DNA of 62,966 nt, the filler included, from Stramenopiles sp. TOSAG23-6 (Eukaryota): assembly GCA_900128565.1 (NCBI GenBank). It is 8 parts of 8 records of this genome, joined end to end, with 100 filler letters (N's around TTAATTAATTAA, not from the genome) between each part and the next. Parts side by side here need not be neighbours in the genome. Positions count along the whole stretch, not along the records: positions 1 to 11,654 come from LT636251.1; 7 more parts are not named here. One strand, 5' to 3'. Within the stretch, counting starts at the first letter, position 1, and each line of letters begins with the position of its first letter. Under the pieces are notes generated by a model that saw nothing but the letters and a program-made list of their open reading frames with translations, had not been told where the DNA came from and did not search any database. This document shows positions 1 through 62,872 of the stretch, piece by piece. Position numbers and translations under genes: made by a program.

Positions 1-1318
1 CCCATGGACAAGGTGGATTTTGACTTCTTGCCCATTTCAATACTTCCAAGTGACCTTTTTCAGCTGCCCAACTACACGTACCTTCATTCCATGGACAAGG
101 TGGATTTTGACATCTTAACCACTGTAATACTTCTAATTTACCACCAGAAGCTGCTAAATAACACGTACTTTCATGCCAACGACAAGGTGGATTTTGATTT
201 CTTGCCCATTTCAATACTTCTAAGTGACCATTTTCAGCTGCTAAAGAACATGTTCCTCCATCCCAAGGACAAGGTGGATTTTGACTTCTTAACCATTTCA
301 ATGCTTCTAAGTGACCATTTCCAGCTGCTTTCCAACACGTCATTTCATCCCATGGACAAGGTGGATTTTGACTTTTTACCCATTTGAATACTTCTAAGTG
401 ACCATTTTCAGCTGCTGCAATACACATATTATATTCATTCCAAGGACAAGGTGGATTTTGACTTGTTACCCATTTCAATACTTCCAAGTGACCACCAAAC
501 GCCGCAGCCCTACATGTTTCATCATCCCAAGGACAAGGTGGATTTTGACTTCTTGACCATTTCAATACTTCTACATGACCATTTTGTGCAGCATTAACAC
601 ATGTCCATTTATCCCAAGGACAAGGTGGATTTTGACTTCTTAACCATTTCAATACTTCTAATTGACCAGTAAAAGCTGAATCAGCACATATCATCTCAAT
701 ATTCCATGGACAAGGTGGATTTTGACTTCTTAACCACTGTAATACTTCTAAGTGACCCTTTCTAGCTGCCATAGAGCAAGTACGTTGATCCCATGGACAA
801 GGTGGATTTTGACTTCTTAACCATTGTAATATTTCTAAACTTCCAATATGAGCTGCACAAGAACATGTCCATTCATTCCATGGACAAGGAGGATTCTGAC
901 TTCTTACCCATTGTAATACTTCTAATTGACCATGACTCGCTGCCCACTGACAAGTCTTTTGATTCCACGGACAAGGTGGATTTTGACTTCTTAACCATTG
1001 TAATACGTCCAAGTGACCAGATGAAGCAGCATTACCGCACGTATCTTCATCCCACGGACAAGGTGGCTTTCTAGATCTCAAATATTTTAAAAAAATCAAG
1101 TCACCATGTTTAGCTGTTTCAGTACAACTTACGCTACCCCAATCAACACCAACCATCCAAGGTCGATTTTTGTCCTTTGACACAAGTCTCCCAGAAAGTC
1201 TTTCTTTCAGTGTTAAATGGCTTACAATCAAGACTGCGGGGCCTAACCCGCTAAATACTCTTTGGAGAACTTCTTCTTGATGTTTTGTTCGTTTTTGGCG
1301 GTTAATCATCCTATTCAT
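1..1318 (-). CDS. F-box-like + ankyrin-repeat protein (PCPW-type repeats), runs off the window start
   Basis: My translation of the minus strand from ATG 1318 is open: MNRMINRQ...LIVSHLTLKERLSGRLVSK (F-box-like), then 13 repeats of about 29 aa (87/90 bp), GHLEVLKWLRSQNPPCPWDExTCxxAA. It is missing from the ORF track because there is no stop inside the window. Confidence 0.85.
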   Translation of the reverse strand, partial: MNRMINRQKRTKHQEEVLQRVFSGLGPAVLIVSHLTLKERLSGRLVSKDKNRPWMVGVDWGSVSCTETAKHGDLIFLKYLRSRKPPCPWDEDTCGNAASSGHLDVLQWLRSQNPPCPWNQKTCQWAASHGQLEVLQWVRSQNPPCPWNEWTCSCAAHIGSLEILQWLRSQNPPCPWDQRTCSMAARKGHLEVLQWLRSQNPPCPWNIEMICADSAFTGQLEVLKWLRSQNPPCPWDKWTCVNAAQNGHVEVLKWSRSQNPPCPWDDETCRAAAFGGHLEVLKWVTSQNPPCPWNEYNMCIAAAENGHLEVFKWVKSQNPPCPWDEMTCWKAAGNGHLEALKWLRSQNPPCPWDGGTCSLAAENGHLEVLKWARNQNPPCRWHESTCYLAASGGKLEVLQWLRCQNPPCPWNEGTCSWAAEKGHLEVLKWARSQNPPCPW

Positions 1319-1595
1319 TGTAAGAAAATAATCAAGATATGTTGTGTAGAAAGATACTAATCTTTTTATATTTTAGATTTGATTGAGATTTTTTTGACTT
1401 TTTCATCGAGCGAAAAAAGAAAAATAATCTTTCTAAAGAAGAAAAATATTTCGTGTTTTTTTCTGAACTTGGCCAAAAACGAAACGGAAAAAGTGTGTCA
1501 ACTCTGATCTGATCTGATCAATCATAATATCATATATATGAAAGTTGAAACCAATAATGGCAATTAATAATAAAAAGAGAAAACACCCAACAAGG

Positions 1596-2550
1596 ATGTC
1601 ATATTTCCGGCGTTCATTGACTGCATGTATTGCTATACCTTTTTTGTTATTTATATTCTCATCGAGTCGAAGGGTTTTATTATTATCGATAAGTCTATCT
1701 TTCTGGGGTACTATAGAATGGGAACGTTTGCGAAGTGCCATCATTCGCCAGCTTGTAGAAAGTCTTGGTATGCACATGAATTATCCTACACCAACAAACT
1801 GTGATATTTTAGCTTTATTTTCTTCAACAGTGTGTGCTATTGTATGGTATATACCTAATTGGTTAATCATGTATCAGGTGAATAGTATTGTTGTTGCGAT
1901 TATTATAGTCCTACACGTGAGGCAGTGGATCAACTTTAGAATTGTACAAAGAGGGCCAAAGAAAACTGCGATAAAGTCACGCAATTTATTTGTGTACAGT
2001 ATATGCATCATGGCGATTGATATTTTTGGTATACTATACATACCTTTTTCAATATCGCACATTGTCTTATTATATTCTGATCCACAATTAGGTGAAAGTG
2101 GCATGTATGATTTATTTTTTTCAATTTCGATTTTATTTTTCGTACGAAATTTTGTACCTAACGATTTTTTTTCGAAATATTTTNCCAAAATACATGCATC
2201 ATCGTTTCAATAACTTAAAAAATCGAGTGAAAGTTTTAGAATATGTACTTCGTGAAGTCCTCAGTAATAATAATGAATCTGTAGGTAAAAAAAATAATAA
2301 AATGGACACGACTATTCTAAAAAAATTATTGACAAGTAGTATGGAAGGCCAACCTATATGTTCGGATGCAAGCATGGCTGTGAGTACACCGGGTAACATT
2401 GATGAACAAGTGTGTCTAGATAGTCCTTCTTTACACTTATCTTCTTATTTTCAAACTGAAAAAAAGGAAATTTCACACAATACAGATATTCCAGAAGCTG
2501 TAAGGTTGCCAAACAAAGATAGAATTGAACAAAATAGTAGCAATTTGTAG
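1596..2550 (+). CDS. Hypothetical multi-pass membrane protein with C-terminal coiled coil, 2 exons
   Basis: ORFs 1545..2213 and 2092..2550 join in frame (...GESG-MHHRFNNLK) on removing intron 2105-2195 (GTATGA...ATACAT). Confidence 0.7.
2105..2195 (+). other. Non-canonical GT-AT intron (family member)
   Basis: CAT|GTATGATTT...TTCGTACGAAATTTTGTACCTAAC...CCAAAATACAT|G; removal restores the frame. Confidence 0.8.
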
Positions 2551-2777
2551 CCCAAAAGTAATATATATATATATATAATATTTAATCATAAATTTATGAC
2601 ATTTTATAAAATGAAATTTTAATAATAGAATGTAATCAAATCTAAATCAGTGATTTTGATGGATTGGTTTTCTTTTCGTAGTCTTCGTAAATGCAATTGT
2701 GTCCACTTCCTTGCCGTTCGTTGCCTTTACAGTAAAATCTTCTTTACCCTCTACATAAAATATTCCTTCTAGTTGAT

Positions 2778-4022
2778 TCACTGAGAATTATATACTTTTA
2801 CACGTTTAATGGACAGTCTACGTGAAATAAAATTAATTAGATATTGTACTAATCTACTCTTTCCATGTTCTCGTAGTAGTATTGTTCTTCTTTGTTTGTC
2901 CAAGTTTGTCTTCCACTCACGAGCTATCCATTCCTCAGTAGATCCAACATGTAGATCTTTGACATCTTTGAGAAAGCTCAGAATGTAATTTGTCATTCTT
3001 GGTGAAATATTCAATAATGCGGGTAATAATGATCTGTACGTAGCTACAAATCTCCTCCTTCGTGCTTCTCTAACAAAATTGCGAATGCTTTTTACAAAAT
3101 CCTTATTGTTTAAATTTTGAGAAGTTGCACCAAAGAAGTCGATTAAATTCTTTCTTTCATGATAATATTGTATAACATCAGGATTCTCTTGAGGGCTATC
3201 TTTAATCAGTGTCTCATATTTTCCCTTTGTAATATTTGCTCTAAATGATTGCAAAATAATCTTTACTATAGCGTTTCCATGTTTTAGATCAGCTGTTAAT
3301 ATTTTATTGTGTCGAGATCGAAAGAGCTCTTTCCTCACTTCTAGTCTTTGTGTGATTGCAAATCCAGTCGCTGAATCGGAAGGGTTATGTTTATGCATTC
3401 TACCATTTAATTGTACGGGTTGAAAAGGTATATAACTACTGGTATTAACATTAGCACCTGCATCGACCAAAAGTTGGACAGAAAGGGAATCAAAATTTTG
3501 TATGGCTACAACCAAAGACGTATTGTTATGCTTGTCAAAATATTCAATGTTAGCTCCCGCACTAATAAATAAAGATATCATTCGACTTTTCATGATATTT
3601 GTCTTGTAGAATGACACAACATAGAACAATGGAGACTCCTCATGATTGAATATACAATTTACGTTAGCACCAAATTGAACCAGTGAATAAACCGTGGCTT
3701 CATCTCTCCGTATAATAGCAAGTCCCATCAAGTTCAGTATCAAACCATTTGAACCGTACCAAGACACGTTAATATCACCTAACGGATCTGCCACAATCGC
3801 AGCAATTAAGTGTTTGATTTCTTTCTCACGTTGTTTGATATTTTGTTCAAGAACTCTTTCTTTAAAGTGGAATTTTTCCACAGCTGAATACAGTCTTGAT
3901 TCAGTATGGGAAAGTTGTCGAAAGTGACGTTTAATCTTGTGCGAGTTTTGTTGGTGTGCGCCTCTGACTGTTGCAATACATAAAAAAAGATAAAGAGCAT
4001 AATGAGCATAATGAATCAACAT
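2778..4022 (-). CDS. Ankyrin-repeat protein with predicted signal peptide
   Basis: Hydrophobic N-terminus; repeats LVQFGANVN, FISAGANIE, LLVDAGANVN. Confidence 0.8.
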   Translation of the reverse strand: MLIHYAHYALYLFLCIATVRGAHQQNSHKIKRHFRQLSHTESRLYSAVEKFHFKERVLEQNIKQREKEIKHLIAAIVADPLGDINVSWYGSNGLILNLMGLAIIRRDEATVYSLVQFGANVNCIFNHEESPLFYVVSFYKTNIMKSRMISLFISAGANIEYFDKHNNTSLVVAIQNFDSLSVQLLVDAGANVNTSSYIPFQPVQLNGRMHKHNPSDSATGFAITQRLEVRKELFRSRHNKILTADLKHGNAIVKIILQSFRANITKGKYETLIKDSPQENPDVIQYYHERKNLIDFFGATSQNLNNKDFVKSIRNFVREARRRRFVATYRSLLPALLNISPRMTNYILSFLKDVKDLHVGSTEEWIAREWKTNLDKQRRTILLREHGKSRLVQYLINFISRRLSIKRVKVYNSQ

Positions 4023-4035
4023 TATTATCGGGTCC

Positions 4036-4109
4036 TTTTACCCGTATGATATAGTGTTGATTTTCTCTACACTTTTTACCCGTATGATAAAGTATTGATT
4101 TTCTCTACA
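4036..4109. repeat. 38-bp tandem duplication in the divergent promoter between two ankyrin genes
   Basis: TTTTACCCGTATGATA(T/A)AGT(G/A)TTGATTTTCTCTACA occurs twice. Confidence 0.85.
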
Positions 4110-4317
4110 TAGAGTTTCTTCCTATTCGGGGGATCGGAGATCAGCTGAGTGATGACGAGGTGCGCTGACTACTATTAGAATCTGAAATCGATGCGAATTT
4201 CTGCGTACCATTTTTTCATACTTAATTCAATAAAAATTAACTTTGATTAATTTTTTGACTCAGTTCCTACCTATTGATCCACTTTTTAGTAATACACACG
4301 GTAAAACCTGTACTAAA

Positions 4318-6844: not shown

Positions 6845-8262
6845 ATGCGGAAACAGCGAATTGTCCTTGCGATTCTATTTGTTCCAACATCCATCATTAT
6901 TTACGACGTTGTGAAGTGTTTTCTATCAACTAACGACAACATCTCAGCTACAAGCAACCAAAATGAACATTTAGATGTACAAATTGACGCTGTTACTGCA
7001 ACTCGACTTGGTCTGAAACATTGTCCTGTTACAGAAAGATCAGCAGTTGTAGATAAAAAAACAAAAGACCGAGGCATGATAAATAATACGTCATTCTCTC
7101 TAAATAATACTTCAGTGAACAAAAACGAAATGTGTAGAAATCCAAATCCAAAAGTACATAATATTAATAGTGCATTACTAAAAGATATTGATGCAGGAGA
7201 TTGCTTTGATGGTCTAAAAAGTGGAAATCGTGTTTGTCTTCCTATAGCTTTAATCATAGGTGCTCAAAAAAGTGGAACGACGTTTGTTTTATTTTTTTTC
7301 AATTTGGAATTTATATTTTTTCGTACGAAAATTTGTACCTAACAATTTTTAATCCAAAAAAAAAAAATATTTTTTCACAAAACATGTTTATTCAGAGTTG
7401 GTTGACCAGACATCCCCAAATGAAGTTCTCAAAAAATAACGAGATGCATTTTTTCGATTTTTTACATAAATCTTTCAAGTCTCCAAAAGGTTTATTTTTT
7501 GATAGATTTTGGGATATTAATCATTTGCCATTGAGTGAGTCATGGAAGTTGTATCTCAGTCGTCAAGAAGAATTACTTCGGTTACCCGGTACATCACCTT
7601 GGCCTACTACAGGAAAACTTTTCATGTTCGATAAAACTCCTGCATATTTTGATACTGCAGATCCTTCCGACATTTTTGAAATGATGCCATCTGTACGATT
7701 GATACTTATATTACGTCAACCTAGTACTCGCTTTCATTCATCATGGCATCATTGCTTTAGATTTAATCGTTCCTCAACAAAAAAGTGCAGTTTGCATTCG
7801 GAAACTCCAGACGGATTTTTAAAACATTTACAAGAGTCTCTTTGTGTTGATTCATCTGGTACTTTGGTAATAAATGATAATGGCATAAATATTAGTCATA
7901 AAGCCACGACAATGAGAGGACTAAAACTTGGTCAATATCATTTTTATTTAGAAAAATGGATGCAAAATAGCAAATTTATACACGAAAATTTACTTGTTTT
8001 ATTTCATAAAAATCTTATTGAAGATCCATTCACAGCAATGCGTAAAATTGAAGATCATTTAGGATTGTACCATTTTGACTATAAAGGTCTTGCTTATCGA
8101 GATAATGATGCAATGTGGCGTTTGAAACCTTCATCATATGATAATATGTATACAGGAGCAGAAAATTATGAAATCCTTTCTAAGTCGAGGGAAATTTTAG
8201 ATACATTTTATGCTGATAGCATCGAACGACTTCGAAATATTAATGGTAATGTACCGTGGTGA
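6845..8262 (+). CDS. Type II membrane sulfotransferase (heparan sulfate 3-O-sulfotransferase-like), 2 exons
   Basis: Removing intron 7282-7385 gives the PAPS-binding motif IIGAQKSGTTFIQSWLTRHP, followed by EMHFFD, FDKTPAYF and LILILRQPSTRFHS. Confidence 0.88.
7282..7385 (+). other. Non-canonical GT-AT intron interrupting the 5'-PSB motif
   Basis: ACG AC|GTTTGTTTT...CACAAAACAT|G TTT ATT gives KSGTT-FIQSWL with correct motif spacing. Confidence 0.85.
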
Positions 8263-11005: not shown

Positions 11006-11654
11006 ATGTTCAACTTCCTCTCGTTCGTTAGATGCCACACCTCAAAAAGTATGCCTTTAAAGTACAATAATTACCAAAGATTATTATGGGGTGCTTCAAG
11101 TCGAAGCTTTGCTAATGGTATATTTTCTACGGTACGTCATACCTAACAAATTTTTTGAAATGTTTTTGAAACCACTTGTGTTTCTTCACATCTTCACACC
11201 TAACAAAGAATACTATAAAGTGTTCCCTAATGTTTATCAATTATTAATATGTTTACTTCAATTGCTACTCTCTACTTTTATAGGAAACACTCCCTTATCG
11301 TGGAGTTCTGGTAGATTTAGAAGCTGGTTACGATGGTGACACAGATCATTTCGAAACACAACTTGATGAATCAATTAAAGCTTGGAGAAACGAAAATAAA
11401 CTCAGTGCGTGGATAAAAATTCCTTTATCAAAATCGAATTTATTATCTATTGTAGCTCGGCATGGATTCCAATATCATCATGCAGCAGGAACAAGCGCAA
11501 CTCTCGTATCTTGGCTTAGCGAGAGTAAAGAAAACAAGATGTACGTTTTCAAAATTGAATTTCGAATTTAGTTTTTTTTGTATCAAATTTTGTACCTAAC
11601 GAATTTTTTTTTTTTCGCTAAAAAAAACAAATATTTTTTCACAATACATACCTC
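11006..11654 (+). CDS. Nudix hydrolase, NUDT6-like (pre-Nudix domain), 5' part; truncated at contig end
   Basis: Exons 11006-11131, 11284-11540 and 11650-: ...FETQLDESIKAWRNENKLSAWIKIP...GFQYHHA...SWLSESKENKIP. Introns 11132-11283 (GT-AG) and 11541-11649 (GT-AT). Not captured by the ORF track. Confidence 0.8.
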
Positions 11655-11754: not shown

Positions 11755-12832
11755 AAAATATTTCAAATTGTTTTTTGTTAGGTACAAAATTTCGTACGAA
11801 AAAAAAAATGGAATTTGAAAAAAAATAAAACATACATTCGTGAAAAAGGACTTGAAATGCTGCAATAATTACAATTGAGAGTGGAACTTGGACTAGAGTG
11901 AACAACTGTGTGTAACCTTTATCTTCCGGGCGATCTACATGGATTATGAAAAATATTTCAAAATTTAAAATCGNTANGGTANAAANTTTTTTNAAAAAAA
12001 AAATAAATTCGAAATTGAAATTGAAATGGAAAACATACAGCAGCGTAGAGAAGCTGAATAAATTGAGAATGTTTCCGAACTGGTTTCACAATCATTAGAA
12101 GCATCCACATAATAATATGAACATTCCAGAGACCCCATAACCAAGAATCTTCAGTTGGCATTGGGAGAAGTAAATCCAAAAGTGTTGGTAGGAGAAAAAA
12201 ACCAACATGTATTTTGGAAAAATATTTCAAAAAAAAAATCGTTAGGTATAAAATTTCGTACGAAAAAAAAATTCGAATTTGAAAAAAATAAAACCAACAT
12301 GAACACACTTACGAGTGTAACCAGTGTTCCAATTTTTCAAATAAACTCCAAGCCCCATTACTGCTTGAATTAAAAATAAGATAAAGTTTTTCAAGCCGAG
12401 ACCAATCCAAAACCATTCTTGATTTTTACGTCGTCCCCAATAGCCACCTTCCTGTGCTTCACAACTAGATTTATCCTTGAACTCACTTCTGTCTTTACAA
12501 ACACTTTTTAGGCAAATTGAACAGTGTACAGAAACGTCTAAAGTGAAGTACATGAGAAAAGCAAGCCATACCAATAAACCGCAAATAGACGCATAAAAGA
12601 TATACATTTGTTTAGCTCTAAGCCACTCCGCTGCTGGAGAAGACGAATCACCCCTTGCCTTGGCTCTTTCCATGTCAAGAGAAACCATCTTTTTACCCAT
12701 GCCCCGTTTTGCTTTTTCTTTGAAATCAACTGGCACGGCTACCACAACACTTTTCCCATTACTATCACCCGAATCCACATTGTTTAGAACTTCATCTAAT
12801 GCCATCGTAAATTTAATGATTGGCTGCACCAA
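11755..12832 (-). CDS. Membrane protein of the phytol/dolichol kinase (CTP-transferase-like) family, multi-exon, 3' truncated
   Basis: Spliced product includes GYTRKCVHVGFF and LYAAVDRPEDKGYT. Introns 12207-12298 and 11939-12038 are both GT-AT; a third starts at 11835. Confidence 0.65.
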
Positions 12833-13174: not shown

Positions 13175-15790
13175 ATGACTGAAACTGGATATGAATCCAG
13201 TAGGATGCGTCGAGCCGACTCTGGTTCTGGAGGAATGAATAGTATCAGTCAAAGAACTTCACGTTTAACCTTGGATTGTCATGACGACGGTGACTATCAT
13301 ATACAATACAATGATAATTTGAACGATGTGAAACTTGACGCTGCAGAAGTCGAAAGAAATATGATGGCAACATTTTTTACTCCACAGGATCAACCTGTCT
13401 TCCAACCTAAGCTTCCTTGCTCACCGTCCCCAGCAAAGAACCGCGCTTTTTCACATAGTCCACAGTGGACTGACAACGATATGGATACAAACGTAGAAGA
13501 GGGTTCTCCAGTTGATTGGGGAATTAATGATTCGGACGAGGAACAATATATAGGTGAATCTAGTGGTGCACCTTCCCCTTTTTTGAGTGACCCCAGTCCA
13601 GGAAGCCGGGCTGCTCCATCGAAGAAAAGTCGCGTCTTTACATCTTGTGGTAAACCAAATGTAGTTGGTTTACATACTGGTCGTCCACCTCTCAAAGCTC
13701 GCAATAATACATTTCGGATCCCGGAGAAAATCAACGAGGAAGAAGAATACGATGGTGACAATGTTGGGGAGCTCCGTGGACTGAAACTTTTCGCATCTCA
13801 GCCGGATAACTCAGCTCAAGAAAATTCCTCTACTGCCTCGAATTCTGATGAAATCTTTCTACCTCCACCCCCACCTCGCCCGCCATCTATGAAATCATCC
13901 AGTAATAATTATTCAATACGCCATGTAGAAAAACGTAAAAGAGGCCATCGCTCTACGTACGAGTACGTTTTCAAAATGAAATGTAAAAATAAATTCGTAC
14001 GAAATTTTGTACCTAACAAAACATTTGAATTTTTGAAATATTTTTTCATGATACAGATCAGGTCGTAGAAATGATGTTGGATTAAATAGACATTCAAATC
14101 ATCGAATTCGTAGAGGAGCTGGTTCGTCATTAATTTCAAGTCAAGGATCTGGTTTACGCCTATATCGAGATTTTGATGCTCATAAAAGAGTTGGTACTGT
14201 AGGTCTTCATCATTAATTTAAAAAAAAACATTTCGTACGAAATTCTGTACCTAACAAAAAACAAATTCTAAAAATATTCTTTTTACAACACATGGAGCAT
14301 TTTCGACGGTTTTTCGCTGTAGGCATGTATTAGATGGTGAATATTATGCAGTGAAACAATACCTCAGACACTTCAAAAGTCGTGCAGCGCGTGCTCTAGC
14401 TCTCCGCGAAGTAAGGACCATGGCTGCTCTTTGTTCAAATGGACATCCGCATTTATTGCGTTACGCTGGTTCTTGGGAAGATATTGGCACATTGCATATT
14501 CAAACGGAGTTTTGTGATGGTGGAAGTCTACAATCTAGATTTATTAAAGCAACATTAGAAAATTCATCTCTGGGTTGTATTAGTGACAAGAACTCTAATT
14601 CGAATGCATCAACATGTATGTTTTTTTTCAATTTTGTTTCAATTTCGAATTTAGTTTTTTTTTTTCGTACGAAATTTCATACCTAACAAAATATTTTTTA
14701 CGAAAAAAAAAAATATTTTTCCACAATATATCGTTTATAAAACCTTACACCCTTGGCCGTTCTGATTCGTATCATAGATCAATGCCATCATTACCTGCTA
14801 ACACTCGAACTCAAAAATCCTTCAATACTAATAATGACGTCAATGTTGTGGATACGATTGATGTTATACCAAAATTAAATGAAGCTAATTTAGTTGTTAT
14901 TCTACAACAAATGTACGTTTTCATTTTAATTTCGAATATATTGTTTTTTTTTTTTTTGAAATTTTTTTTTTTGAAATATATTTTTTTGAAATATTTTTTC
15001 ACAACAAATGGGATCTGCGTTAGAATATATGCATAAAGTTGGCTTTGTTCACTTAGATGTAAAACCTGAAAATATTTTATTATGTAAAGCCGGAAATAGC
15101 GAACTTGGTGGTGTCTGCAAATTAGGAGACTTTGGGATGACATTGCCTGTGGAGAAGGACGGTGGTCCGTCTTCAGCTACCGCTGCTGGATTGGTCGAAG
15201 GAGATAGTCGATATTTATCAATGGAAATTCTCCAAGAAAATTACCGATGTTTACCTGCTGCTGACATGTTCGCACTTGGTGCTACTGTATATGAACTTGC
15301 CCGCATTTCAATTGGTGGTACGCCTCTACCTCAAGATGGTCCTGAATGGTCAAGTTTGCGAAGAGGTGGAAGTAATGGTGGTCCTTTTCTGCCTACAAAA
15401 TCAAACAAATCTCAAATTTTTTCAAAAGTACAATTTCCTCTTGTCAATGAAGAGAATTGTTATTCTGAGGAATTTGTTACGCTTCTTCGACTTTTAATGC
15501 ACCCAGATCCGTGTACAAGACCTACTGCAAAGCAATTATTGCAACATCCTTTGGTATTGAGCAGTATTTGCGCAAAAACGCATACAATGCCAATTTTATG
15601 TTCAGGAAGTGATGACGAAGACACCCCACGAATGAACAAAAATAAATTAGGAATGTTTTTGAGCCAACAAGTTGGGAATGACCTTGCAGGTGAAGTAAAA
15701 ATTTGGAAACAGAAGCACGAAATCTTGAAACAGCAATTGGCAGTAGAAATGGGAAAGCGTGCAGAGATGGAACATAGTCTTTTTGACTAA
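13175..15790 (+). CDS. WEE1: Wee1/Myt1-family protein kinase, 5 exons
   Basis: After removing introns 13963-14056 (GT-AG), 14199-14293, 14616-14731 and 14913-15009 (GT-AT): RLYRDF...VGTGAFSTVFRCRHVLDGEYYAVK, HIQTEFCDGGSL, VHLDVKPENI, KLGDFG, EGDSRYL, ADMFALG. Confidence 0.9.
14199..14293 (+). other. Non-canonical GT-AT intron inside the kinase glycine-rich loop
   Basis: GGT ACT|GTAGGT...CAACACAT|GGA GCA TTT TCG restores GxGxFS; there is no AG between the branch motif and the exon. Confidence 0.88.
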
Positions 15791-16059: not shown

Positions 16060-17445
<1,386 letters not shown>

Positions 17446-21120: not shown

Positions 21121-23382
21121 ATGCAAGACGGTGATAATGTGTCGAAATCAAATCATCCCAGCGACAGTTGTTTGTTGCAATCTATAGATGCTTGTCTGCG
21201 CCTTGTTTCGTCTGGTACTAAAGAAAAAAGCAGTCATCAGTCTTTAGATTCAAAGCAGAAGATCTTGAGAGATTTATTCCAATCACTACAAGACTCCATC
21301 TCTCGAACTGCTGTAACAAATGATTATGGAGTAATGAGTTCAGTACCTCGCATATTAACCGTAATTATGGAAGACGAAACACTCTGTGCATTATCCCTCG
21401 ATTCTGGCGCTTTGGTGTCCTGTCTACTTCAATTTGTTACACTTCGAATACCGCAAGAACGCACGAACGATGGAGTAAAGGTGAAGTCCGTTAATGTACC
21501 TCGTCATCAACTAGTTGAACGAGGGCGCACTTGGGCATTATCAGTTCTCAAAACATTGCTTTCGTCTGAAAGAAGTACACAAAAACATCATCGCGAGTTG
21601 ATACAGAGGCCAGAATTTCCAGTTGGTGTTCAGCCTTTATTCGATTCTGTCTTTATTCAGAATGCTGTACACGCTTTAGTTGGTCAAATTGAGTATTTAA
21701 GACAAGAAACAGATACAATTGAAGCTGTGAAAGCTTTTCAACTAATCGTAAACGAATCAATTCCAATTCTGAGGTTAAGTTTCCATGTTCGTTTTCATCA
21801 TGAATTTCCATTTTTTTTTACTATAAAAATTTTGTACCTAACGATTTTTTTTTTTTCGGTAAAAAAAAAAAAAAAAACATTTTTTACAAAACATATTCGA
21901 ACGTACGAAAGGAATATATGGGAAAGTATATCAACTTTAATAGACACTATATTTCTATGGCATCCGAACCCTAACCCTAGAGATAAGAATGTACCTATTA
22001 CAAAAAGTTGGCTTTCTGATGACATTTTTTGTATTTATTTATATTTATCGTGTATGTTTTATTTTTTTTCAAATTCGATTTTTTTTCGTACGCAATTTTG
22101 TACCTAACGATTTTTTTTTTGAAATATTTTTACAAAATACATTGTCTTGGTTTCAACTTGGAATCTTATTATCTTTGGCATCAATTCAACGTTTTTCAGA
22201 TAAAGTTTTGAATCATTTAACACATAGAGTGTTAAAGTATCACCAACAAGTAAAGCAGTTGCAAGAAAGTCCATGCACGTTTTCATCATTCATTTCAATT
22301 TATATTTTATAATTATTTTTATACGAAATGTTGTACCTAACGATTTTTTTTCTAAAATATTATTTCACTTTACTTGGAACCGCATTGAATCAAAGCGAGT
22401 TCGTGAAGCACTATTTCATGATTCTACAAGTAGTAGTAGTAGTAGTAGTAGTAGTAGCAGCAGTGGCAATACCACTGAGAAAAATCAAAATCCAGAAAAA
22501 GATGAAAAATCAAATAGCAATTTTCATATAGGAATGAATATGGCTACAGAATCTGAGTCTGTTGATATAGAAGCATTAATACTACAAACTATTGAGCATA
22601 GTGCCCATGGCTGGGAGCATATCACACCTTCATTACTTCAATTAGCGGTACGACTTTTAGATATGACTGCGAAAACGTCGAGCTTTTCTATCAAGCAAAG
22701 ATCAAAAACATCAAATATAATATTGCCAGTTGATGTCCTCAATCGAACGAATTCAATGAATCACAAGAGTATAGATGCAAAAGAACTTGCGGTTTGTACT
22801 GGGTTTCGCATATTATTTTCTTTGATTCGCGTTCAAAAAGTTGTACGTTCTAGCATTCTCGAACATATATTGACACGTGTCATGTCACGAGCACCAACAG
22901 TTCGTCAATATATCGCATTACTAAAAGCTATTGCATTAGATACACCAATACTATTACTACCATTTTCTCAAAGAGTGAAAGAAAGTTTAGAATATTGTCC
23001 TTTACTTCCCTCCAGCGTTGCGAGTTTGCTGATTATTGCAGTTGAACCTGTTGTTTGCCTTCGTCCGGACCTTCGTGATTATACAGCAGTTATATTACGT
23101 AAAGCAATGTTTAAAAGAGACCCAGGTGCTCGTATTGTTGCAGTGGAAGGAATGATACGTCTTCTTGTACAATTAGAAAATCAAAGAAATTCAAATGAAA
23201 TGGAACGAAAAGCAGCGCAATTACGGTTTTGGTGTCAAATCTCTGGTTTATTCCGCCGGGTCCTTGGTCAACAATATAGTGTTAGAGAATCACTATATAC
23301 TGGTTTAGTACAGGTATATGAAAAAATCCCAGCTGTACGCCATGAAATTTTATCTTTATTGTTACCGCATGTTCAAAATTAT
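21121..23382 (+). CDS. FANCI: Fanconi anemia group I protein, 5' part, multi-exon
   Basis: HSAHGWEHITPSLLQLAVRLLD, LRKAMFKRDPGARIVAVEG and FRRVLGQQYSVRESLYTG resemble FANCI solenoid motifs. Introns 21787-21894, 22052-22142 (GT-AT) and 22275-22375 (GC-TT). Confidence 0.75.
22275..22375 (+). other. Non-canonical GC-TT intron
   Basis: CCA T|GCACGTTTT...TGTACCTAAC...CACTTTACTT|GG AAC joins two ORFs in phase 1. The acceptor register is taken from alignment to the family consensus. Confidence 0.6.
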
Positions 23383-23544: not shown

Positions 23545-25167
23545 GTTTCCTTAAAACAATGGAAAATTTAAATTTACGTAAAAATAATATAGGGTGTAAC
23601 CGACACCGACTTCGACCGAGCCAACTTCAAGAATTTTTACAAAAAAAATGTATAATTATTAACATAGATATTGCAAATCGTTTATGTAAGTGTTTTTTCC
23701 GAAATTTTCATTTTTTTGAATTTTTTTTTGTACGAAATTTTGTACCTAATCAATTTTTTAGATTTTTTCAAAATATTTTTCAACATTATATGTAAAATGG
23801 CAGGGACATTTAGTGATGGCAGAGTTAGTTTTGAAGAGCTAAAGGCTGCTGTGAGAGGAGCATCATTAATAATGGATGTATGTTTTAGTTTTTTTTCAAA
23901 TTCCATTTTTTTTTTTTTTTGAAAATTTTGTACCTAACAAAAAAACATTTGAAATATTTTTCCAAAATACATGCGGAATCGTTTCATATTTTATTAGCAA
24001 AAAAAGAAAATACTTTACATAAAACAAAAACCGAATTAGAAGCTCAAAATATAAAAAATATGGAAAATCATGCTGTTTTTATGAGTGAAGGAAAACAAAA
24101 TCTAAAATATGAAATTCAGGATTTACAGACTCAACATGTATGTTTTATTTTTTTTTTTTTTTACCGAAAAAAAAAAATCGAATTTATTTTTCATACGAAA
24201 TTTTGTACCTAACGAATTTTCAATTTTTTTTTTGAAATATTTTTCCAAAATACATGATGATATTATTCAACGAGTACATGAAATCAAAAGAAATGAATTT
24301 GAGAATTTAGAAAAAATGTATCAAAAACAGATTAAAGAAGCCACAGAAAGACATATAGGTTTTCTTTACGAATTTCAATTTTTTTTTTTTTTTTCATTTT
24401 GAATTTCAATTTTTTTTTTTTTTTTTTCATTATGAATTTCAATTTTTTTTTCATACACAATGGTATACCTAACAAAATAACACATAAAAGATATTTTCTT
24501 ACAATGTATGTTGAATCTTTAATGGAAATAGAGCAGAATAAAGCATTTAGAACACATGAGGGTACATTTTATTTTTTTTTTTCAATTATATTTTTTCGTA
24601 GTTAATTTTGTACCTAACAAAAAACAATTCGATATAATTTTTCATTACACAGCTTTAGATAATTGGAGAAAAGGAAGAGACGAAACCGTCAAGCGGTTAC
24701 AAATTTCCCATGGCAAAACATACGATTCAAAAAAACGATTTTTAGCATCAAAAAAACATGCAAAAATCAAAGCGTTAGAGAAGAAATTTCAACGTCAATT
24801 TGACACACATTCTGCATTATTGAAAAAAATGTATGTTTTTTTTTTTTTTTATATTTTTTTTTTTGCGTAAAAAAATGTTATACCTAACAAAAATTGTACA
24901 ATTTTTTTTATTTTAATTTTTTTTTTGTAGTACATTTTATACCTAACAAAAATTGTACATTTAAAAAAATATATTTTCATACAAAACATTCATCAAACAA
25001 ATATAAAACATAGATTAGAAGAAAATATTTCAATTTTACGGAATGAACGTGAGCTGTTGCTTTCTCAAATGAGGAAGGAAATCAGTGGAAATTCTATTAA
25101 AAAGGAAGAAATTCAAGAAGTAAACAATTCATATGAAAACAAAACTATTTGGGAGTCTGATGTATAA
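23545..25167 (+). CDS. 3' part of an EF-hand-like/coiled-coil protein with 7 short exons
   Basis: Continuous frame after removing introns 23686-23791, 23878-23972, 24138-24255, 24355-24509 (AT-AT), 24562-24652 (GT-AG) and 24831-24989; DGRVSFEEL motif; stop at 25165-25167. Confidence 0.7.
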
Positions 25168-32157: not shown

Positions 32158-32722
32158 CTAGCTAGGGTATGTCTTCCAAATAACTTCCATTCGTACATCT
32201 TTTGGATTTCGTGTACCGTCACGAAGTTGCTGCTCAAAGATTTCAATCATTTTCTTAGAATCAAGCGTCGGTGGCTCCCAGCCTAACCCTTTATTATATG
32301 CTTCTAAAGTTGAAAAAAATTGACTTTGAGTGGCGACACATTCTGATGCCGCCATGAAGTTTAGGAAAATATTTTTTTACATTGGATGAATTGCTTTGTT
32401 AGGCACAAAATTTGGTTCAAATAAAAATTATAAAAACAATTTGAAAATTGAAAGCTTACATGACCCAATATTCAGATTGAGGTAGCTCGCCATATTCGCG
32501 ATAGTGTAGATTTGTATTAGTATTCCTTTTGCAATTTTTATTTGCCTCATTATCATAAACTAGATTGCTTAGAATAGTTTGCAATACATCATCTTTGATT
32601 TGTTCTTCTTTTCTTGAAACATCGAGTTTTTTCACCTGTTGTTTTTCATCCCCCATCTTAATGTCTGTTGACATCTGTAGACTATGTATATCTGTATCAT
32701 CGATATTATTACTCGGGTTCAT
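32158..32722 (-). CDS. Hypothetical protein, 2 exons
   Basis: ORFs 32456..32722 and 32158..32355 join (EYWVM-AASEC) through a diverged GT-AT intron at 32354-32459 (GTAAGC...GTGCCTAAC...CTTCAT). Confidence 0.7.
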
Positions 32723-34306: not shown

Positions 34307-34418
34307 GTTTGTTTTATTTTTTTTTTTACAAAAAAATCGATTTTTTTTTTCGTACGAAATTTTGTACCTAACAATTTTTTTTTTAAAGAAAATTTTGAAA
34401 TATTTTTCCAAAATACAT

Positions 34419-42364: not shown

Positions 42365-45055
42365 TCATTGTGTTAAAACAATTTCATCAACAAACTCCAT
42401 TGCAACTTGAAGCTGTTCATTGCTCATGTCAACAGGTTCTGTAGTCAAGACGTTAACATTTACCAGTCTCTCTACGCCAGAATTAAAGCCTTCTATAACC
42501 AAGCTGTCTTTATGTTGACCAGCTCGTACACTGTGTATTGTGAAATATATTTTTAAATTTTTACTAGCTAGGTAAACAATTTTCTGTGAAAAAAGATATA
42601 TTTGAAATTAACGATGAAAACGTATATTGCGAATATCTGAAGTTTTGTCACGCATTCCTCTCTTAAATGTTTTAAGTTTTTTTTTGATACTATCTCTTTT
42701 TTCCGATTCAAATATTTTTCGTTTTGAAGAATTGTGTTCGATACCAACAAATGCATTGATTATCTTACTATCCACTTTATCAAGCCGAGAATTCTCGATG
42801 AATTCAGCTCCAGCTGCTTGAGTTCCTCCATCATTTTTTGTTTCAATAGCTTGTTTCTCTCCGTCTTTCTTTTGCTGATTCAAAAATTCAAGTTGTTTCA
42901 TTTGAATTAAAGCCTTAATTGAATCCGTAAGTTGTTCAGTTCTGTTATTAGTAGGCGTTTGAAAAGTAGATCTGAAAGTAGAAAAATCATGTGTTGCATT
43001 TACATCATTTTCATCTACAATAGGCAATTCACCAGCATATAACTTATTTTGTCTCAAGTCTTCCCAATCCTTGATTTTTAAATATCCACGAAAATGTGAC
43101 TCTTCCAATTCGAATTTGTGAAAGTCGCAATGGTTTACATCAATATTGAATTTATGTTGTATTCTGGATGCCATGAATGATAAATGTGGCAGTTTAAAAG
43201 CTAAATTAGAGAATGTGTTTATTCCATCGGTTCGGATCCCACCCTGTTTTAGTTTTGAAAAACATTTTCTCACTTTTGTCATCATTGCTTGCAAGCTTAA
43301 ATTAGTCATTTGATTCTCACGTGTTTGTTTCTTTGATGCATTAATTCTTGGAACAAATCTCTTAGGTAAGCAAACAGGAAATTCGTGTGACGGCCATCCG
43401 TTTTCAACGTCAAATGATTTATCTAATGTTGCTGTATCTTCTTCATTCAATTTTTCATTATATGCACTTTCATCATTGGTTCTAAAAGTCAGAAGTATAT
43501 CAACTTGTGATTTACTCTTAATGTACTCGAATAGAGCTTCAGCCGAATGCATATGCTTAAAGCATGTGTGGTTGCCCACACGTGTGGCTACATAGAGCAA
43601 ACCGTTTTCATCATGAGCCAGAATGCTTTTAGTTAGTAAAAGTGATGCTGCTGCTTTCTTCATCTCAATAAGACAATTTGTTTCTTGAAATGTTAAAAAA
43701 TTTGATTCAATCGTTTGAAATTCATTATTTGTATTTTTATTCCTCTTCTGTTTTAGATTGTTTGTTGGATCAGGTAGTATACCTTGACCTGGTATAAAAA
43801 CTGCTGATGATTGGATGACAGCTAATTTTATTCGTTTAGTTCTTATTTTTTTGACTTTTGGTGTGCGACTAGTTGAAGTTTGTTTTTTGGGTTTTGACTT
43901 TTCCTTAGTATTGTTTGAATTTTCGTTGTTTGACTCTTGGTACAAGCATATGTACATAGTATCGTCGGTCAAGTCTTCAAGATACGAACACAATGCATTA
44001 TCCTGTTTTATTGGCTCGAAGGTTTTGCTTGAAAGTGGTTTACCTTTTTTGCTCAATTTAGGCACAAGAAACATGTCTTTGGATAAATTAGTTGGTGCAT
44101 CCTCCATACGATCGGACAGTATATCAATAATTGTTTTCACTTCTGTAGTAGAAGTTTCGCCAATTACTTTTATATCACTGTACACGATTGCTGTGTTGTC
44201 GAATTCTCCAATGTAATTTTGTGGGTTTGATACAATTGTTTTAACAGACTTGGATACATATAGCTTGATTTTTTTTACTGAATCTTTGGATGGCACTTCA
44301 ATACTGTCGTCGTCATTCGTTGCTGGATCTTTACTATCGGTTGTTGAATCGCTATCGTCAAACGATACAGGGTTTAAAGGCAACGATTTTGCTTTACCTG
44401 TACCATCGGTTGTTGTTGAATCGGTATCGCTATCTGAACCCTCGGTTGTTGAATCGCTATCTGAACCCTCGGTTGTTGAATCGCTACTAGATAGGGAATA
44501 CTTAGTCCGTGTGTTTTTTTTTTTGGAGTTATTCTCATCAGAAATCAAATCTAATAACACTTCCCCTGCCGAAATAGTTGAGTCTTTGGAACTAGAGTTA
44601 TCCATCTCGAAAGATTCAGAAACCGAATCAGTGGAGTCGGACTCAGACTCAGACTCGCAGACCACAGCAATCCTGAGTTTCCTGTTTGTATCGACGTGGG
44701 CTGTCATTATGGATTTCACATTCGTTTGTGTCAAAGGAGTCCATGCCGTTTCACGATTCGATAGTCCTGGTGTTCGTAAAACGTAAATGTTCTTATAACT
44801 TTCACTTGAACTGTGTTTCAGAGCCTTCTGTATTCCGTTGACAAGCTGCCCCATGATGGCGTTTCCTGTTCTACTTTGTGATACAACTTTTTTTATTTTT
44901 CCTTTTTCTTTAAAAGACTTTTTCTTTGTGCCAGTATAAAGTGACAGTACGATATAGTCATTACACCTACCTTTGTATAGAGTGGGCATTGCGTGATTAT
45001 TTAACAGCGAATCGTAACTAGGGTAGATAAAAGGTCTTTCTGATGTCCTTTTCAT
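42365..45055 (-). CDS. Transposon ORF2, about 865-aa protein of unknown function, 2 exons
   Basis: The ATG lies within the right TIR (MKRTSER); Ser/Asp/Thr-rich repeats; intron 42533-42625 joins a further 55-codon exon ending at TGA 42365. Confidence 0.7.
42533..42625 (-). other. AT-AC intron of the host family within transposon ORF2
   Basis: AAT|ATACGTTTTCA...TTTACCTAGC...AAATATATTTCACAATACAC|AGT. Confidence 0.6.
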
Positions 45056-45582: not shown

Positions 45583-46573
45583 ATGTGTAAGAAAATGCAA
45601 GAAGTCAAAGTCGGTTGTGAGTCGAAGAATGTACAGCATGCGAATCGTCGAAGGATGCTGCTTAGGCGAAAAGAAGCCGAGGAGAAGTATGTCCGAAGAA
45701 TGGAACTTGGCCGTGATGATGCGAATCCGCCACCACGTAAATTAGCTGTTCAACCTCGTGATCCGCTCTGTCCTGTTTCGCCGTTGAAATCTGTTAAGCA
45801 ATTCGTTGATCGCATGAAAAAAGCCAAGTCTAAAATGTATGTTTTAATTTTCAATTTCGAATTTGTTTTTCGTACGAAATTTTGTACCTAACAAATTTTA
45901 GTGTTTTTTTTTGAAATATTTTTCCAAAATACATCCCAACAAAGATAGACTTTTCGGATAAGCGCGTACGATTAAAATTGCATAACCGTTACGTGCGTAA
46001 GAAAAAGAGAGCGGCTATGGCTAAAGCATGTTCTCGACAGAGAATATCAGCGCGCAAAAACGAGCTTGATTCTCTCAGGATGTTTTATTTTTTTTAATTT
46101 CGAATTTATTTTTTCGTACGGAATTTTGTACCTAACAAAAAAACGAAAACAAAAATATTTTTTCACAATATATGGGCAATGATGCAGGCCAGAGTGGCTG
46201 ATGCTTTAGCTGCTGAGTTGGCAGAAGAAGAAGCTCAAACAACTCACAACGAAGCAGAAAAAAGCTCAGCAAATGTCAAAGCTTGTGCTCTGATGAGAAT
46301 CTCGGAGCGCAGAGATGAGCTTGATTCGCTCAGGATGTTTTATTTTTTTAATTTCGAATTTATTTTTTTTTTTAATTTCGAATTTATTTTTTCGTACGGA
46401 ATTTTGTACCTAACAAAAAAACAAAAACAAAAATATTTTTTCACAATATATGGGCAATGATGCAGGTCAGACTGGCTGCTGCTATTGATGCTGGTTTGGA
46501 CGAAGAAGATGCCAAAACAACTCACGACGAAGCCTTTCTACTGGCTCAGCAATACCAAAAGGTGTTTGCTTGA
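45583..46573 (+). CDS. Hypothetical basic/coiled-coil protein, 4 coding exons with a duplicated exon-intron unit
   Basis: Frame is continuous after introns 45837-45934 (GT-AT), 46078-46173 and 46333-46451 (GG-AT); a probable 5'-UTR GT-AG intron lies at 45364-45560. Confidence 0.7.
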
Positions 46574-55510: not shown

Positions 55511-55589
55511 TAACTATTATCAGTAAAAACAAGGCATTTGTATTAATTTATTTATTTTTTATTATTTTCATCAAACAGTCTCATAAACA

Positions 55590-60071: not shown

Positions 60072-61354
60072 CCAACAACAATACATATATTGTGAAAAAA
60101 TTTTTTTTTTTTTTTTTTTGTAAAATTTGATTTTTTTTTGTTAGGTACAAAATTTACTATGAAAAAAAAAATTTAAAAAAAAATTTAAAAAAAATTTAAA
60201 AAAAATTTAAAAAAAAATTCAAAAAAAAATTCAAAAAAAAAACATACACGAAAAGACTCTCCAACAAAACGAAGTGTCATCAAATAAAATGTAACAAACA
60301 ACAGCCGATCCAATAATTACAAATATACCAGCAACAGCAATTCCTCCTCTAGTAATCCATGTAATGAAAAAAAAAAATCAAAAAAAATCAAAAAAAATTT
60401 TGTTAGGTACGAAATTTTTTTACGAAAAAAAAAAAAAATCAAAATTCAATTTTTTTGTAAAAAAAAAAATAAAATCATACATAATAATTTTTCCAATAAT
60501 TTCAAATCTTCTTCACGCTGTTCTTCTTTTGTCATTTTTTCCATTTCAGCTTTTGATTTAGCAGTTGATGATGTAGTACGTACAGCAAAAATACCCAAAA
60601 TTGAACAGAAAATACCGAGACCAGCAATCCAGAAAGGTAATGCCATGGCATGTATTATGAAAAATAACAAAAATGTCCGAAAAAAAAAATTGTTAGTTAT
60701 AAAAAAAAAANGTCCNGAAAAAAAAAAAAAAATTCTGAAATTTTTTTTTGTTCCAATATAAAAAAAATATAAAAAAAATATAAAAAAATATAAAACATTA
60801 TACAACATACATTCCATAATTGATCCATACCTAAATGAGGAATTTTACGATCCATTGGAAAACTTGGAAATGGTGATAAATTATGGACATCCTATATTGT
60901 GAAATTTTTTTTTTTTTTTTTTTTAAATTTGATTTTTTTTGTTAGGTACAAAATTTACTATAAAAAAACAAAATTTAAAAAAAAACATGAAAAAAAAAAA
61001 AAAACATACATGTCCATCGTGTATCTTAGGAAAGCATGAGGCGGTAGCACCATAAATTGTGGTATATAATTGCTGAAATTTTGACCATGCTTCAGTACCT
61101 TGAGTAAACTCAGCTGCGCCGGAAGGGACAACATTCTCAATATCAATACATGCATTTATATGAGTTGGATTTGTAAAAACATTTTTTGCACATTTTGATT
61201 TAACAAATAATTTCATTTGTTTGCCATCATCTTTTAAAAAGAAAGTGTTAAATACGTTTTGTCCAAAATTGACTCCGCATGATCCAGCTGACATTCCACA
61301 AAATCTTGATCCATCAGTGGTTCCATTACAAGAAGCCACAGGTAGTGATTTACA
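60072..61354 (-). CDS. Internal exons of a membrane protein, probably H+-translocating pyrophosphatase
   Basis: Spliced (introns 60892-61009, 60650-60810, 60359-60480, 60085-60247): AMALPFWIAGLGIFCSILGIFAVRT...LLWITRGG...WRVFSCIVVG resembles mid-protein H+-PPase helices, preceded by a Cys-rich insert. Confidence 0.55.
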
Positions 61355-61651: not shown

Positions 61652-62872
61652 GGAATGTAAAGATGAAAGCTACAGTTACAAAACTTGAAATTCGTTCATT
61701 GGTAACAATTAAAAGCTTTACTTCAGTTCCACTTCAATTGCTTCCACTTTTACATTTTCAACGGGCCTCAAACGACAATTTGAAAAATACAAAAAATACA
61801 AAAAAAAATACAAAAAATACAAATAAAATGATGAAATTTTTTAATCGAGTCAAAGAAATTTCAAAAATTACAAAACATATGGATAGTACACATAACCCAC
61901 AGACAAATCCGAAACATTTGAATGAAATTCATGAGTGTACTCGTTTTTGTTTAGATGTATGTTTTCAAAAAAAAACAAAAATTTTAACTTTTTAATTTTT
62001 TTCGTACGAAATTTTGTACCTAACAATTTTTTTTTTTTTTTTAAATATATCCTCAACAAATATGCTTTTGAAACGTATTCTTTACCATTATCTGATGCGG
62101 TTGCATCTGCAATTGTTGTAAAACCAATGTTACATTTCATGCAAAATAAACAATCCAACACCACTAACCCTAATCCTGCTCATCATTCAAACCATGGTGC
62201 AAAAAAAAATACAAAAAATACAAAAAATACAAAAAATATGCATGTTTTATTTTTTTTCAAATACGAAATTTTTTTTATAGTAAATTTTGTACCTAACAAA
62301 TTTAAGTTTTTTTTTTTTCAAATATTTTTCCAAAAAATATGAGTAATGTACAGTACGACGCGGCAGTGTCATTTAGTCAACCTATACCGATTCAACAACC
62401 CATTAGCACAGACGAAACAAAACACACTACAACAACATTTAATAAACAGTCTAACCCTAACCCTAATGATAATGAAATAATAGAAGCTTATCGACTCAGT
62501 AGTAATGTTTTATTATCAAAAATTGGATATACATGTATGTTTTATTTTTTTGAAAATTTGAATTGTTTTTTTTTATAGGAAATTTTGTACCTAATGAATT
62601 TTTTATTTTTTTGAAAATTTGAATTTTTTTTTTTTTTTTATAGGAAATTTTGTACCTAATGATTTTTTTTTGAAATATTTTTCCAAAATACATTTCATTC
62701 ACATGTTTCTGTAGTAAAACACGTGCAGGGCGATATTGAAATATCATTTTTTGCTCCAATTACACTTAATAATTTTTTACCATATGAAGTCGAATTTAGA
62801 CTGCAATATTTGGATAAAGATAAACTTGATTTCATTGATAAAGTAAAATGGATCGTTAAGGACAAAAGACAT
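61652..62872 (+). CDS. Internal exons of a probable VPS13-family protein
   Basis: Introns 61957-62063, 62240-62340 (GC-AT) and 62535-62693; the last exon ISFFAPITLNNFLPYEVEFRL resembles VPS13 adaptor-binding repeats. Confidence 0.45.

Follow-up and report, generated by a model that had tools for sequence, protein, structure and literature searches.

A 24-nt motif at the core of an introner-like intron family in a marine protist, and the candidate branch point at its 3' end

In 62,966 nucleotides (nt) of DNA from Stramenopiles sp. TOSAG23-6 (GenBank assembly GCA_900128565.1; the whole stretch is called the window below), the 24-mer TTCGTACGAAATTTTGTACCTAAC at 2139-2162 (+) raises the question whether a long palindromic sequence shared by many introns is a branch-point signal as a whole, in part, or not at all. 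The original prediction had placed an unusually long branch-point motif at 2137-2162. The motif is present, but its true span is 2139-2162, the earlier one having included two extra T. The printed flanks of its matches revealed that the 24-mer is not free-standing, being the middle of a repeated unit of ~91-122 nt. Judging from the sequence, and with a probability of roughly 0.6, we consider the 24-mer to be the core of an introner-like family, in which only the 3' end of the motif is a likely splicing signal, with CTAAC as the candidate branch point and the rest as family sequence. The focal copy is built as follows.

2105..2195 (+): focal family intron, 91 nt, GT..AT, with exon CAT before and exon G after, from the profile alignment
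2105..2113 (+): 5' splice-site block GTATGATTT (family consensus GTATGTTTT), block identity 0.90, n=32
2139..2148 (+): palindromic half TTCGTACGAA, with two CpG
2149..2162 (+): best-conserved block ATTTTGTACCTAAC, with the candidate branch sequence CTAAC at 2158-2162 and the candidate branch A at 2161
2163..2172 (+): variable T/A tract following CTAAC, a T run or an A run depending on the copy
2173..2195 (+): conserved 3' blocks GAAATATTTT-N-CCAAAATACAT, with terminal CAT, block identities 0.87 and 0.80

A repeated intron family in sense orientation

The 24-mer matched the two strands of the window 26 times at ≤3 mismatches (10 exact, seven with one, five with two and four with three mismatches), while none of 100 dinucleotide-preserving shuffles gave a single match at this threshold. 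With 26 matches against 0 expected, the earlier observation of the motif was confirmed overall. The matches at 46911(-) and 58428(+) are one locus counted twice, lying in a 2.4-kb inverted duplication of a single contig. A profile built from 15 copies recovered, at a cut-off of E ≤1e-3, 42 family copies in the 63-kb window, distributed among 8 contigs and no fewer than 15 genes. A second profile round aligned 43 copies, from which one duplicate locus was dropped. The order of the unit is: exon (Y)AT, GTATGTTTT, a T-rich arm with AATTTCGAAT, the 24-mer (TTCGTACGAA-ATTTTGTACCTAAC), a T or A tract, GAAATATTTTT, YCAMAATAYAT and exon G. Family introns are 91-122 nt long.

Both ends were found in 24 copies, one of which runs into N, leaving 23 testable by reading frame. 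In all 23, exact excision gave the longest two-sided sense frame when compared with cuts shifted by +1 or +2 nt (median 61 codons vs 14 and 16; minimum 33), and this frame was longer than any antisense frame. All 23 testable copies were in sense orientation. For the focal intron, exact excision leaves at least 117 codons open on each side, vs 6 and 4 for the +1 and +2 cuts. One Pkinase domain is split by two family introns.

RNA contigs from seawater metatranscriptomes (two studies) skip two family introns, 12198-12289 and 14198-14292. The first is skipped by a 463-nt contig of run X4, joining 12197 to 12290 (92 nt, 12-nt ambiguity, 41 nt on the shorter side), and the second by contigs of runs X1 and X6, joining 14197 to 14293 (95 nt, 2-nt ambiguity, 45 and 34 nt on the shorter sides). 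A skip of 14614-14729 is weak, since the one X4 contig has only 21 nt on one side. For the other 21 introns, it is the reading frame that gives the intron status. Gaps in the RNA-contig cover within 12001-23380 carry no evidential weight. The summed RNA contig depth was thousands-fold higher over family copies than over adjoining exons at 12001-12380, 13901-14280 and 21881-22260. Hundreds of contigs with other flanks also matched the element (870 for X1, 789 for X2), pointing toward a very high copy number in those samples.

By homology, the termini of the 24 complete copies were GT..AT (17), GT..AG (3), GC..AT, GC..TT, AT..AC and GG..AT (one each). Only the GT..AT register gives all three RNA-skipped introns a GT start. 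An AT..AC register, in which copies follow exon AT, was rejected in its favor, because it fits one of the three RNA-skipped introns and GT..AT fits three. The predicted non-AG 3' ends are therefore real for most of the family, 17/24 complete copies being GT..AT, and the motif was also present, as foreseen, in the GT..AG introns 13957-14056 and 24562-24652, as well as in 60892-61009(-). Positions -2 and -1 of the upstream exon are A and T in 80% and 81% of copies (30-32 copies), and 88-94% of the introns have a terminal AT. Both borders follow a Y-A-Y pattern, with Y 97%, A 94% and Y 91% for the last three intron bases, and Y 52%, A 80% and Y 94% for the upstream exon.

In 66% of copies the downstream exon begins with G, and the borders AT|GT...AT|G correspond to canonical AG|GT...AG|G with T for G at both -1 positions. 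Six of 22 family introns (23686-23791, 32354-32459, 34307-34418, 42533-42625, 45837-45934 and 62240-62340) have an AG 3-16 nt after the candidate branch A that is not the frame-restoring 3' end, indicating that the acceptor is not defined by the first downstream AG.

With many similar copies at unrelated positions, removal as introns and sense orientation, the family has three hallmarks of an introner family. We also looked for introns outside it: nearly all AT-rich islands between same-strand frames in the window were family copies, and the remainder look intergenic. A metagenome scan with the family 3' block gave at least 117 loci, none of which, among the matches listed, had the family 5' block or the motif correctly placed; such loci are chance matches in AT-rich DNA. 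A scan of viral contigs with 17 nt of the motif gave six loci, all in unrelated coding sequence.

Conservation of the motif and its candidate branch point

The claim that about 24 nt are conserved across copies was partly right: the motif stands out, but its conservation is uneven along the 24 columns. Among 40 aligned motif instances, columns 3, 4, 7 and 8 (the two CG of the palindrome) carried the consensus in only 62-67% of copies, and columns 11-23 in 80-100%. CTAAC was found in 33 instances, CTAAT in four, CTAAA and CTAGC in one each, and one contained N. The core CCTAA had one substitution in 39 motif-bearing copies and, with one further copy lacking the motif, was kept in 38/40.

Over the 42 copies, the block identities to the consensus were 0.90 for the 5' splice site GTATGTTTT, 0.78 for AATTTCGAAT, 0.83 for the palindrome TTCGTACGAA (perfect in 16/41), 0.94 for ATTTTGT, 0.95 for ACCTAAC (perfect in 31/39), 0.87 for GAAATATTTTT and 0.80 for TCACAATACAT. 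The tract after CTAAC reached only 0.53, in agreement with the predicted free variation of the flanking T/A tracts. Two further predicted details were confirmed: the palindrome is real, extending over 12 nt (TTTCGTACGAAA) in pristine copies, and diverged forms of the motif occur as GTGCCTAAC at 32398-32421(-) and TACCTAGC at 42567-42590(-).

The 14-nt 3' half of the motif, ATTTTGTACCTAAC, was better kept (0.94) than 41 other complex positions (0.84; 35 well-covered copies, Wilcoxon p=2e-5) and than the palindrome (0.81; 35 copies, p=1.6e-4). The palindrome itself was no better kept than the 5' splice-site and 3' blocks (0.81 vs 0.84, Wilcoxon p=0.52). In the 12 copies that are <80% identical elsewhere, the 14-nt block was still at 0.95, vs 0.73 elsewhere. 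Of the "unusually long branch-point motif", what stands is a well-placed CTAAC end that is the most invariant part; the 24-mer is not one long signal, the palindromic half being no better kept than other blocks.

The general branch-point consensus is yUnAy, with CUAAC as the best form, and yeast UACUAAC pairs with GUAGUA of the U2 small nuclear RNA (snRNA). From this likeness we infer that CTAAC, or more broadly ACCTAAC, would serve as the branch-point sequence, with the CUAAC core pairing with an ordinary U2 branch-recognition sequence. In the 23 complete motif-bearing copies, 34-53 nt separate the second A of CTAAC from the 3' end (34 nt for A 2161 of the focal intron), within the predicted "roughly 30-55 nt"; in the proposed mechanism this A would sit at that distance from a 3' splice site that is usually AT, not AG. 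The palindrome and ATTTTGT would be family sequence, conserved by descent from a few recent source elements, and also kept as the only intron parts outside the slippage-prone T/A runs. The family has spread, always in sense, through the genes of an uncultured marine protist.

Two observations from the copies point toward CTAAC as the signal. A competing YTRAY downstream of CTAAC was present in only 2/22 introns. ACCTAAC occurred 32 times in sense within the family spans (4.3 kb), never in antisense, and six times elsewhere in the window (both strands). The ends of the element are near-symmetric (ATGTAT...ATACAT), so that an inverted copy would also offer GT..AT. The strict sense orientation despite such ends calls for an internal strand-specific signal, for which CTAAC and the U-rich tracts are the obvious candidates.

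Several points weigh against the branch-point reading. Private substitutions were as frequent in the 14-nt block (12/571 cells, 0.021) as in four other blocks (30/1446, 0.021; Fisher p=1.0), although with 42 young copies this test neither demonstrates nor rules out selection per intron. Variants seen at most twice were only mildly depleted in the block (odds ratio 0.53, p=0.03). The intron 14913-15009 has neither the 24-mer nor CTAAC, with 0.93 identity elsewhere and 0.43 in the 14-nt block, and still restores the frame in a kinase domain; either the motif is not indispensable, or this gene copy is dead. Because the search profile contained the motif itself, the sampling favors copies that carry it. 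To control for this in part, we selected copies on the 3' end block only; of these, 18/20 had GTACCTAAC (≤1 mismatch) upstream and 13/20 had the palindrome. The RNA-library evidence consists of assembled contigs, which show the joined form, cannot show branches, and could derive from DNA. A spacing of 34-53 nt is on the long side, the usual range from branch to acceptor being about 18-40 nt. Lastly, the tract after CTAAC is A-rich in many copies and not pyrimidine-rich, the conserved TATTTTT lying nearer the 3' end.

One rival reading is conservation by descent alone, according to which the motif has no function of its own, being simply the part of a young repeat that is most complex and least prone to slippage, with the branch formed at another A. 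The equal singleton rates inside and outside the 14-nt block agree with this, as do the conservation of the whole ~95-nt element outside T or A runs and the persistence of the motif-less copy in the kinase gene. The per-copy constraint implied by the original prediction, for which decay relative to neighboring intron sequence was the proposed check, was accordingly not upheld. The equal rate of private changes places the extra conservation of the 14-nt block between subfamilies, whose arms differ while the block is constant, and not within single copies; this fits selection on a few propagating source elements. Descent alone leaves poorly explained why all subfamilies have the block in common despite their differing arms, why it holds at 0.95 in the most diverged copies, and why CCTAA is nearly free of substitutions. 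Together with the 20/22 introns lacking an alternative downstream YTRAY, and with a sense-only orientation that calls for an internal directional signal, this makes descent alone unlikely, but still worth weighing seriously.

The palindromic half could also be a mobilization signal, with boxes bound by a copying enzyme, kept in source copies and decaying after insertion. The boxes would be TTTCGTACGAAA (center), AAATTCGAATTT (5' arm) and TTYGAAAT (3' arm), which is compatible with a branch role of CTAAC beside the palindrome. All three boxes, palindromes related to one another, are visible in the copies themselves, and the perfect palindrome is present in some copies with very different arms (e.g., 13957-14056 and 14199-14293). 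The CpG columns of the boxes are the least conserved complex columns (50-67%), as expected if they are needed only in source copies. The only transposase-like open reading frame (ORF) of the window, at 40961-42259 (+), has 432 codons and a DDE_3 transposase domain (E=2.6e-25). Around this ORF we found no convincing terminal inverted repeats and none resembling the intron family, so the window holds no transposase with matching ends. The self-complementarity of the whole element was not above that of shuffles (31, 117 and 42 of 300 as high), and a cut-and-paste DNA transposon would not be expected to insert in sense only, unless the other insertions are lost by selection. Mobilization boxes are thus an improbable explanation for the motif.

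A host U2 or U12-like snRNA with a changed branch-recognition sequence, complementary to GUACCUAAC, would be another way to read a long conserved block; an extended branch helix would then offset the missing AG. The block 5' of CTAAC (ATTTTGTAC) is indeed longer than the usual metazoan branch site, and the long 5' block (9 nt) with a variable 3' dinucleotide (AT, AG, AC) is qualitatively similar to U12 logic. CUAAC, however, already fits canonical U2 (GUAGUA with UACUAAC), upstream pairing with canonical U2 would need an extra bulged C, and both the 34-53 nt distance and the 5' block GTATGTTTT are unlike the U12-type consensus. An Rfam search of the window gave no match at the gathering score or at E ≤1, and no snRNA was found within the window. 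Such a co-evolved snRNA, which is announced in the title of an Entamoeba preprint, appears highly improbable here. In its boldest form, the introns would be defined by their long 5' and branch blocks and not by the 3' dinucleotide, and read by a co-evolved snRNA, either a U2 with a gained base matching GUACCUAAC or a remodeled minor-spliceosome RNA working at a long branch-acceptor distance. This would amount to a lineage-specific third style of branch recognition, spread by introners, and we regard it as a long shot.

The remaining proposal was an RNA hairpin, GUACGA-AAUU-UUGUAC, folding in the pre-mRNA and leaving CUAAC single-stranded just 3' of the stem. The hairpin can be drawn, with one G-U pair, and the stem appears in minimum-energy folds of pristine copies (e.g., 45840-45937 and 22052-22142), but covariation does not support it: 74.6% of cells were paired vs 73.2% in shuffles (102/500 as high). 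Of the six pairs of the stem, 4-19 is disrupted in 11 and 7-16 in 10 of the 23 distinct rows, and whole-intron folds were no more stable than shuffles (seven introns, z -2.15 to +0.63). The hairpin is largely refuted and has next to no credibility as the reason for the conservation. We retain CTAAC as the candidate branch point of an otherwise family-specific sequence.

Host, assembly and further family introns

The host appears to be a MAST-like protist (MAST, marine stramenopile group). The MYST acetyltransferase encoded at 16060-17445(-) had its best named match, with 78% identity and 100% coverage, in a EukProt entry with an identifier beginning GSMAST32, which we take to denote a marine-stramenopile single-cell assembly. 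The remaining matches listed were protist transcriptomes or genomes (amoebozoans, stramenopiles and others). A fritillariid larvacean origin, considered because of the Y-A-Y pattern and the AT 3' ends, was rejected, because the best MYST matches are to protists, with no tunicate among the best 120 listed. Intron families are not discussed in two MAST genome papers, where "intron" occurs twice, in the methods only (PMC5778133), or is absent (PMC8163842).

The window consists of separate contigs, the first of which (positions 1 to 11,654) is LT636251.1, joined by N44-TTAATTAATTAA-N44 linkers, so that adjoining contigs are not linked. The linkers are at:

11655-11754
23383-23482
35088-35187
46789-46888
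58474-58573
59972-60071
61470-61569

At least 9 of the 14 linker-adjoining contig ends fall inside or ≤5 nt from a family copy, evidently because a high-copy repeat breaks the assembly. The contig 46889-58473 has a perfect ~2.4-kb inverted duplication at its ends (46889-49290 and 56070-58473; 100% identity in 500-nt bins), which includes a family intron and a phosphatase gene and may be an amplification product or an assembly chimera. Single-cell amplification often produces inverted duplications of this kind as an artefact, and both this duplication and the short contigs fit the reading as a single-cell assembly.

The other family introns used above, with their motifs, are listed below.

7282..7385 (+): GT..AT; motif 7320-7343; frame restored
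11541..11649 (+): GT..AT; motif 11577-11600; contig end 5 nt further on
11939..12038 (-): GT..AT; N within the motif region; frame restored
12207..12298 (-): GT..AT; motif 12241-12264; RNA-contig skip; frame restored
13957..14056 (+): GT..AG; exact 24-mer 13994-14017; alternative 5' border 13963; frame restored
14199..14293 (+): GT..AT; motif 14232-14255; RNA-contig skips (X1, X6)
14616..14731 (+): GT..AT, in a protein-kinase domain; motif 14664-14687; frame restored
14913..15009 (+): family intron without motif, in a kinase domain; frame restored, with 104 codons open after excision
21787..21894 (+): GT..AT; palindrome replaced, GTACCTAAC kept (21818-21842); frame restored
22052..22142 (+): GT..AT; motif 22085-22108; frame restored
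22275..22375 (+): diverged, GC..TT by homology; motif 22318-22341; frame restored
23686..23791 (+): GT..AT; motif 23727-23750, ending CTAAT; frame restored
23878..23972 (+): GT..AT; palindrome lost, GTACCTAAC kept (23915-23938); frame restored
24138..24255 (+): GT..AT; motif 24190-24213; frame restored
24562..24652 (+): GT..AG; motif 24595-24618; frame restored
32354..32459 (-): diverged, GT..AT; GTGCCTAAC (32398-32421); frame restored
34307..34418 (+): GT..AT; exact motif 34349-34372; frame restored
42533..42625 (-): diverged, AT..AC by homology; TTTACCTAGC (42567-42590); frame restored
45837..45934 (+): GT..AT; exact motif 45869-45892; frame restored
46078..46173 (+): GG..AT by homology; motif 46113-46136; near-duplicate 46365-46451; frame restored
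60359..60480 (-): GT..AT; motif 60402-60426; frame restored
60892..61009 (-): GT..AG; motif 60941-60964; frame restored
62240..62340 (+): GC..AT; motif 62274-62297; frame restored
62535..62693 (+): internal duplication; two motifs, 62572-62595 and 62637-62660, both ending CTAAT

Internal duplications with two GTACCTAAC blocks were seen among the introns 62535-62693, 34087-34230, 24831-24989 and 46078-46451, and in the last of these an exon-plus-intron stretch is apparently repeated in tandem. An identical 31-nt GT..AG segment occurs at 51302-51332 and 53747-53777 (+), just 5' of the probable start codons of two kinase genes arranged in tandem. The segment resembles the family 5' arm fused directly to CTCTACAG, and may be what a deletion left of a family copy, or else a very short intron of the 5' untranslated region (5'-UTR).

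Significance and comparison with known introns

Introner families carrying their own splice signals are already known, and a conserved branch block has a precedent in Micromonas. Less ordinary are the host, an uncultured marine protist, probably of a MAST group, and the finding that most copies end in AT and not AG, yet keep a canonical-looking GTATGT start and CTAAC. Because the first 9 bases and the block ending CCTAA are common to the copies, the lariat junction would be nearly the same sequence family-wide. If the branch is at CTAAC, the junction would read ...TTTTGTACCTA(A), directly followed by GTATGTTTT. A search of raw metatranscriptome reads for this junction word could locate the branch point in an unculturable organism, and the same reads could reveal how 3' splice sites are selected where AG is lacking. 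Gene models of this genome will be wrong unless GT..AT introns of the family are allowed. A search of the literature on introners in stramenopiles or MAST found nothing relevant, and a full-text search for the motif strings gave, among the matches listed, only primers and unrelated sequences.

U12-type introns have a CC-containing 5' consensus (RTATCCTT), a branch site TCCTTAAC about 10-20 nt from the 3' end, and variable termini. The family shares with them the long 5' and branch blocks, the tolerance of AT, AC or AG at the 3' end, and a pyrimidine tract that is weak or absent in many copies. It differs in a 5' block without CC (GTATGTTTT; +5 G 97%, +6 T 88%) and in a branch block of another sequence, which in 23 copies is 34-53 nt from the 3' end.

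Compared with the yeast-type U2 branch sequence, the last five bases, CUAAC, are identical and plausibly placed relative to the 3' end. Immediately 5' of them, AC stands in place of UA (or, equivalently, one C is added), and the conserved block extends ~9 nt further upstream, where it has no known partner.

DNA-transposon introners of Micromonas and Aureococcus are said to have been described by Huff et al. 2016. A short direct repeat at the borders, here exon AT and intron AT, is a likeness to these elements, as far as the accessible part of a later survey describes them (Gozashti et al. 2022, PMC9860276). When an element with such border repeats is excised, one copy of the repeat goes with it. 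Short inverted ends are a second likeness to such elements as sketched there (here ATGTAT/ATACAT, plus T4/A4), but at a length of only 6-10 nt they fall on the splice-site consensus itself. The (Y)AT seen at each border may reflect either a duplication of 2-3 nt or the splice consensus. Given this overlap, the data demonstrate neither terminal inverted repeats nor a duplicated target site.

Non-canonical introns of Fritillaria have reportedly been described by Henriet et al. 2019, a work known to us through citing papers. In Fritillaria borealis and relatives, according to the accessible text of Soo et al. 2026 (PMC13326754), introns are non-canonical, and AT is the commonest 3' terminus in two Fritillaria genomes. 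The likeness to our family, within the same text, extends to short introns, non-AG 3' ends, a Y-A-Y triplet both ahead of the 5' site and at the very end of the intron, and a proposed transposon origin. The main Fritillaria classes given there start with AG (AG/AC, AG/AT), whereas this family starts with GT, and a conserved internal branch block is not described in that part of the text (PMC13326754). The U2 branch-recognition sequence is stated there to be conserved in Fritillaria (PMC13326754); as the host is not a larvacean, this statement is not applicable to it.

The Micromonas introner elements, in the accessible part of Simmons et al. 2015 (PMC4540971), are sense-only, and their families have in common only the 5' splice site, a branchpoint block GacUGAC and a 3' CAG. 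They differ from the present family in the CAG end, in GacUGAC and in GT/AG or GC/AG termini, where 17/24 copies here end in AT and the block is GTACCTAAC. The Micromonas host is a green alga, while here it is a heterotrophic marine protist, and the two are likened by features and not by sequence alignment. Both comprise, on the description available in PMC4540971, many near-identical introns at unrelated positions, in sense in transcription units and removed by the spliceosome, with a conserved 5' splice site, branchpoint block and 3' end, and U-rich segments.

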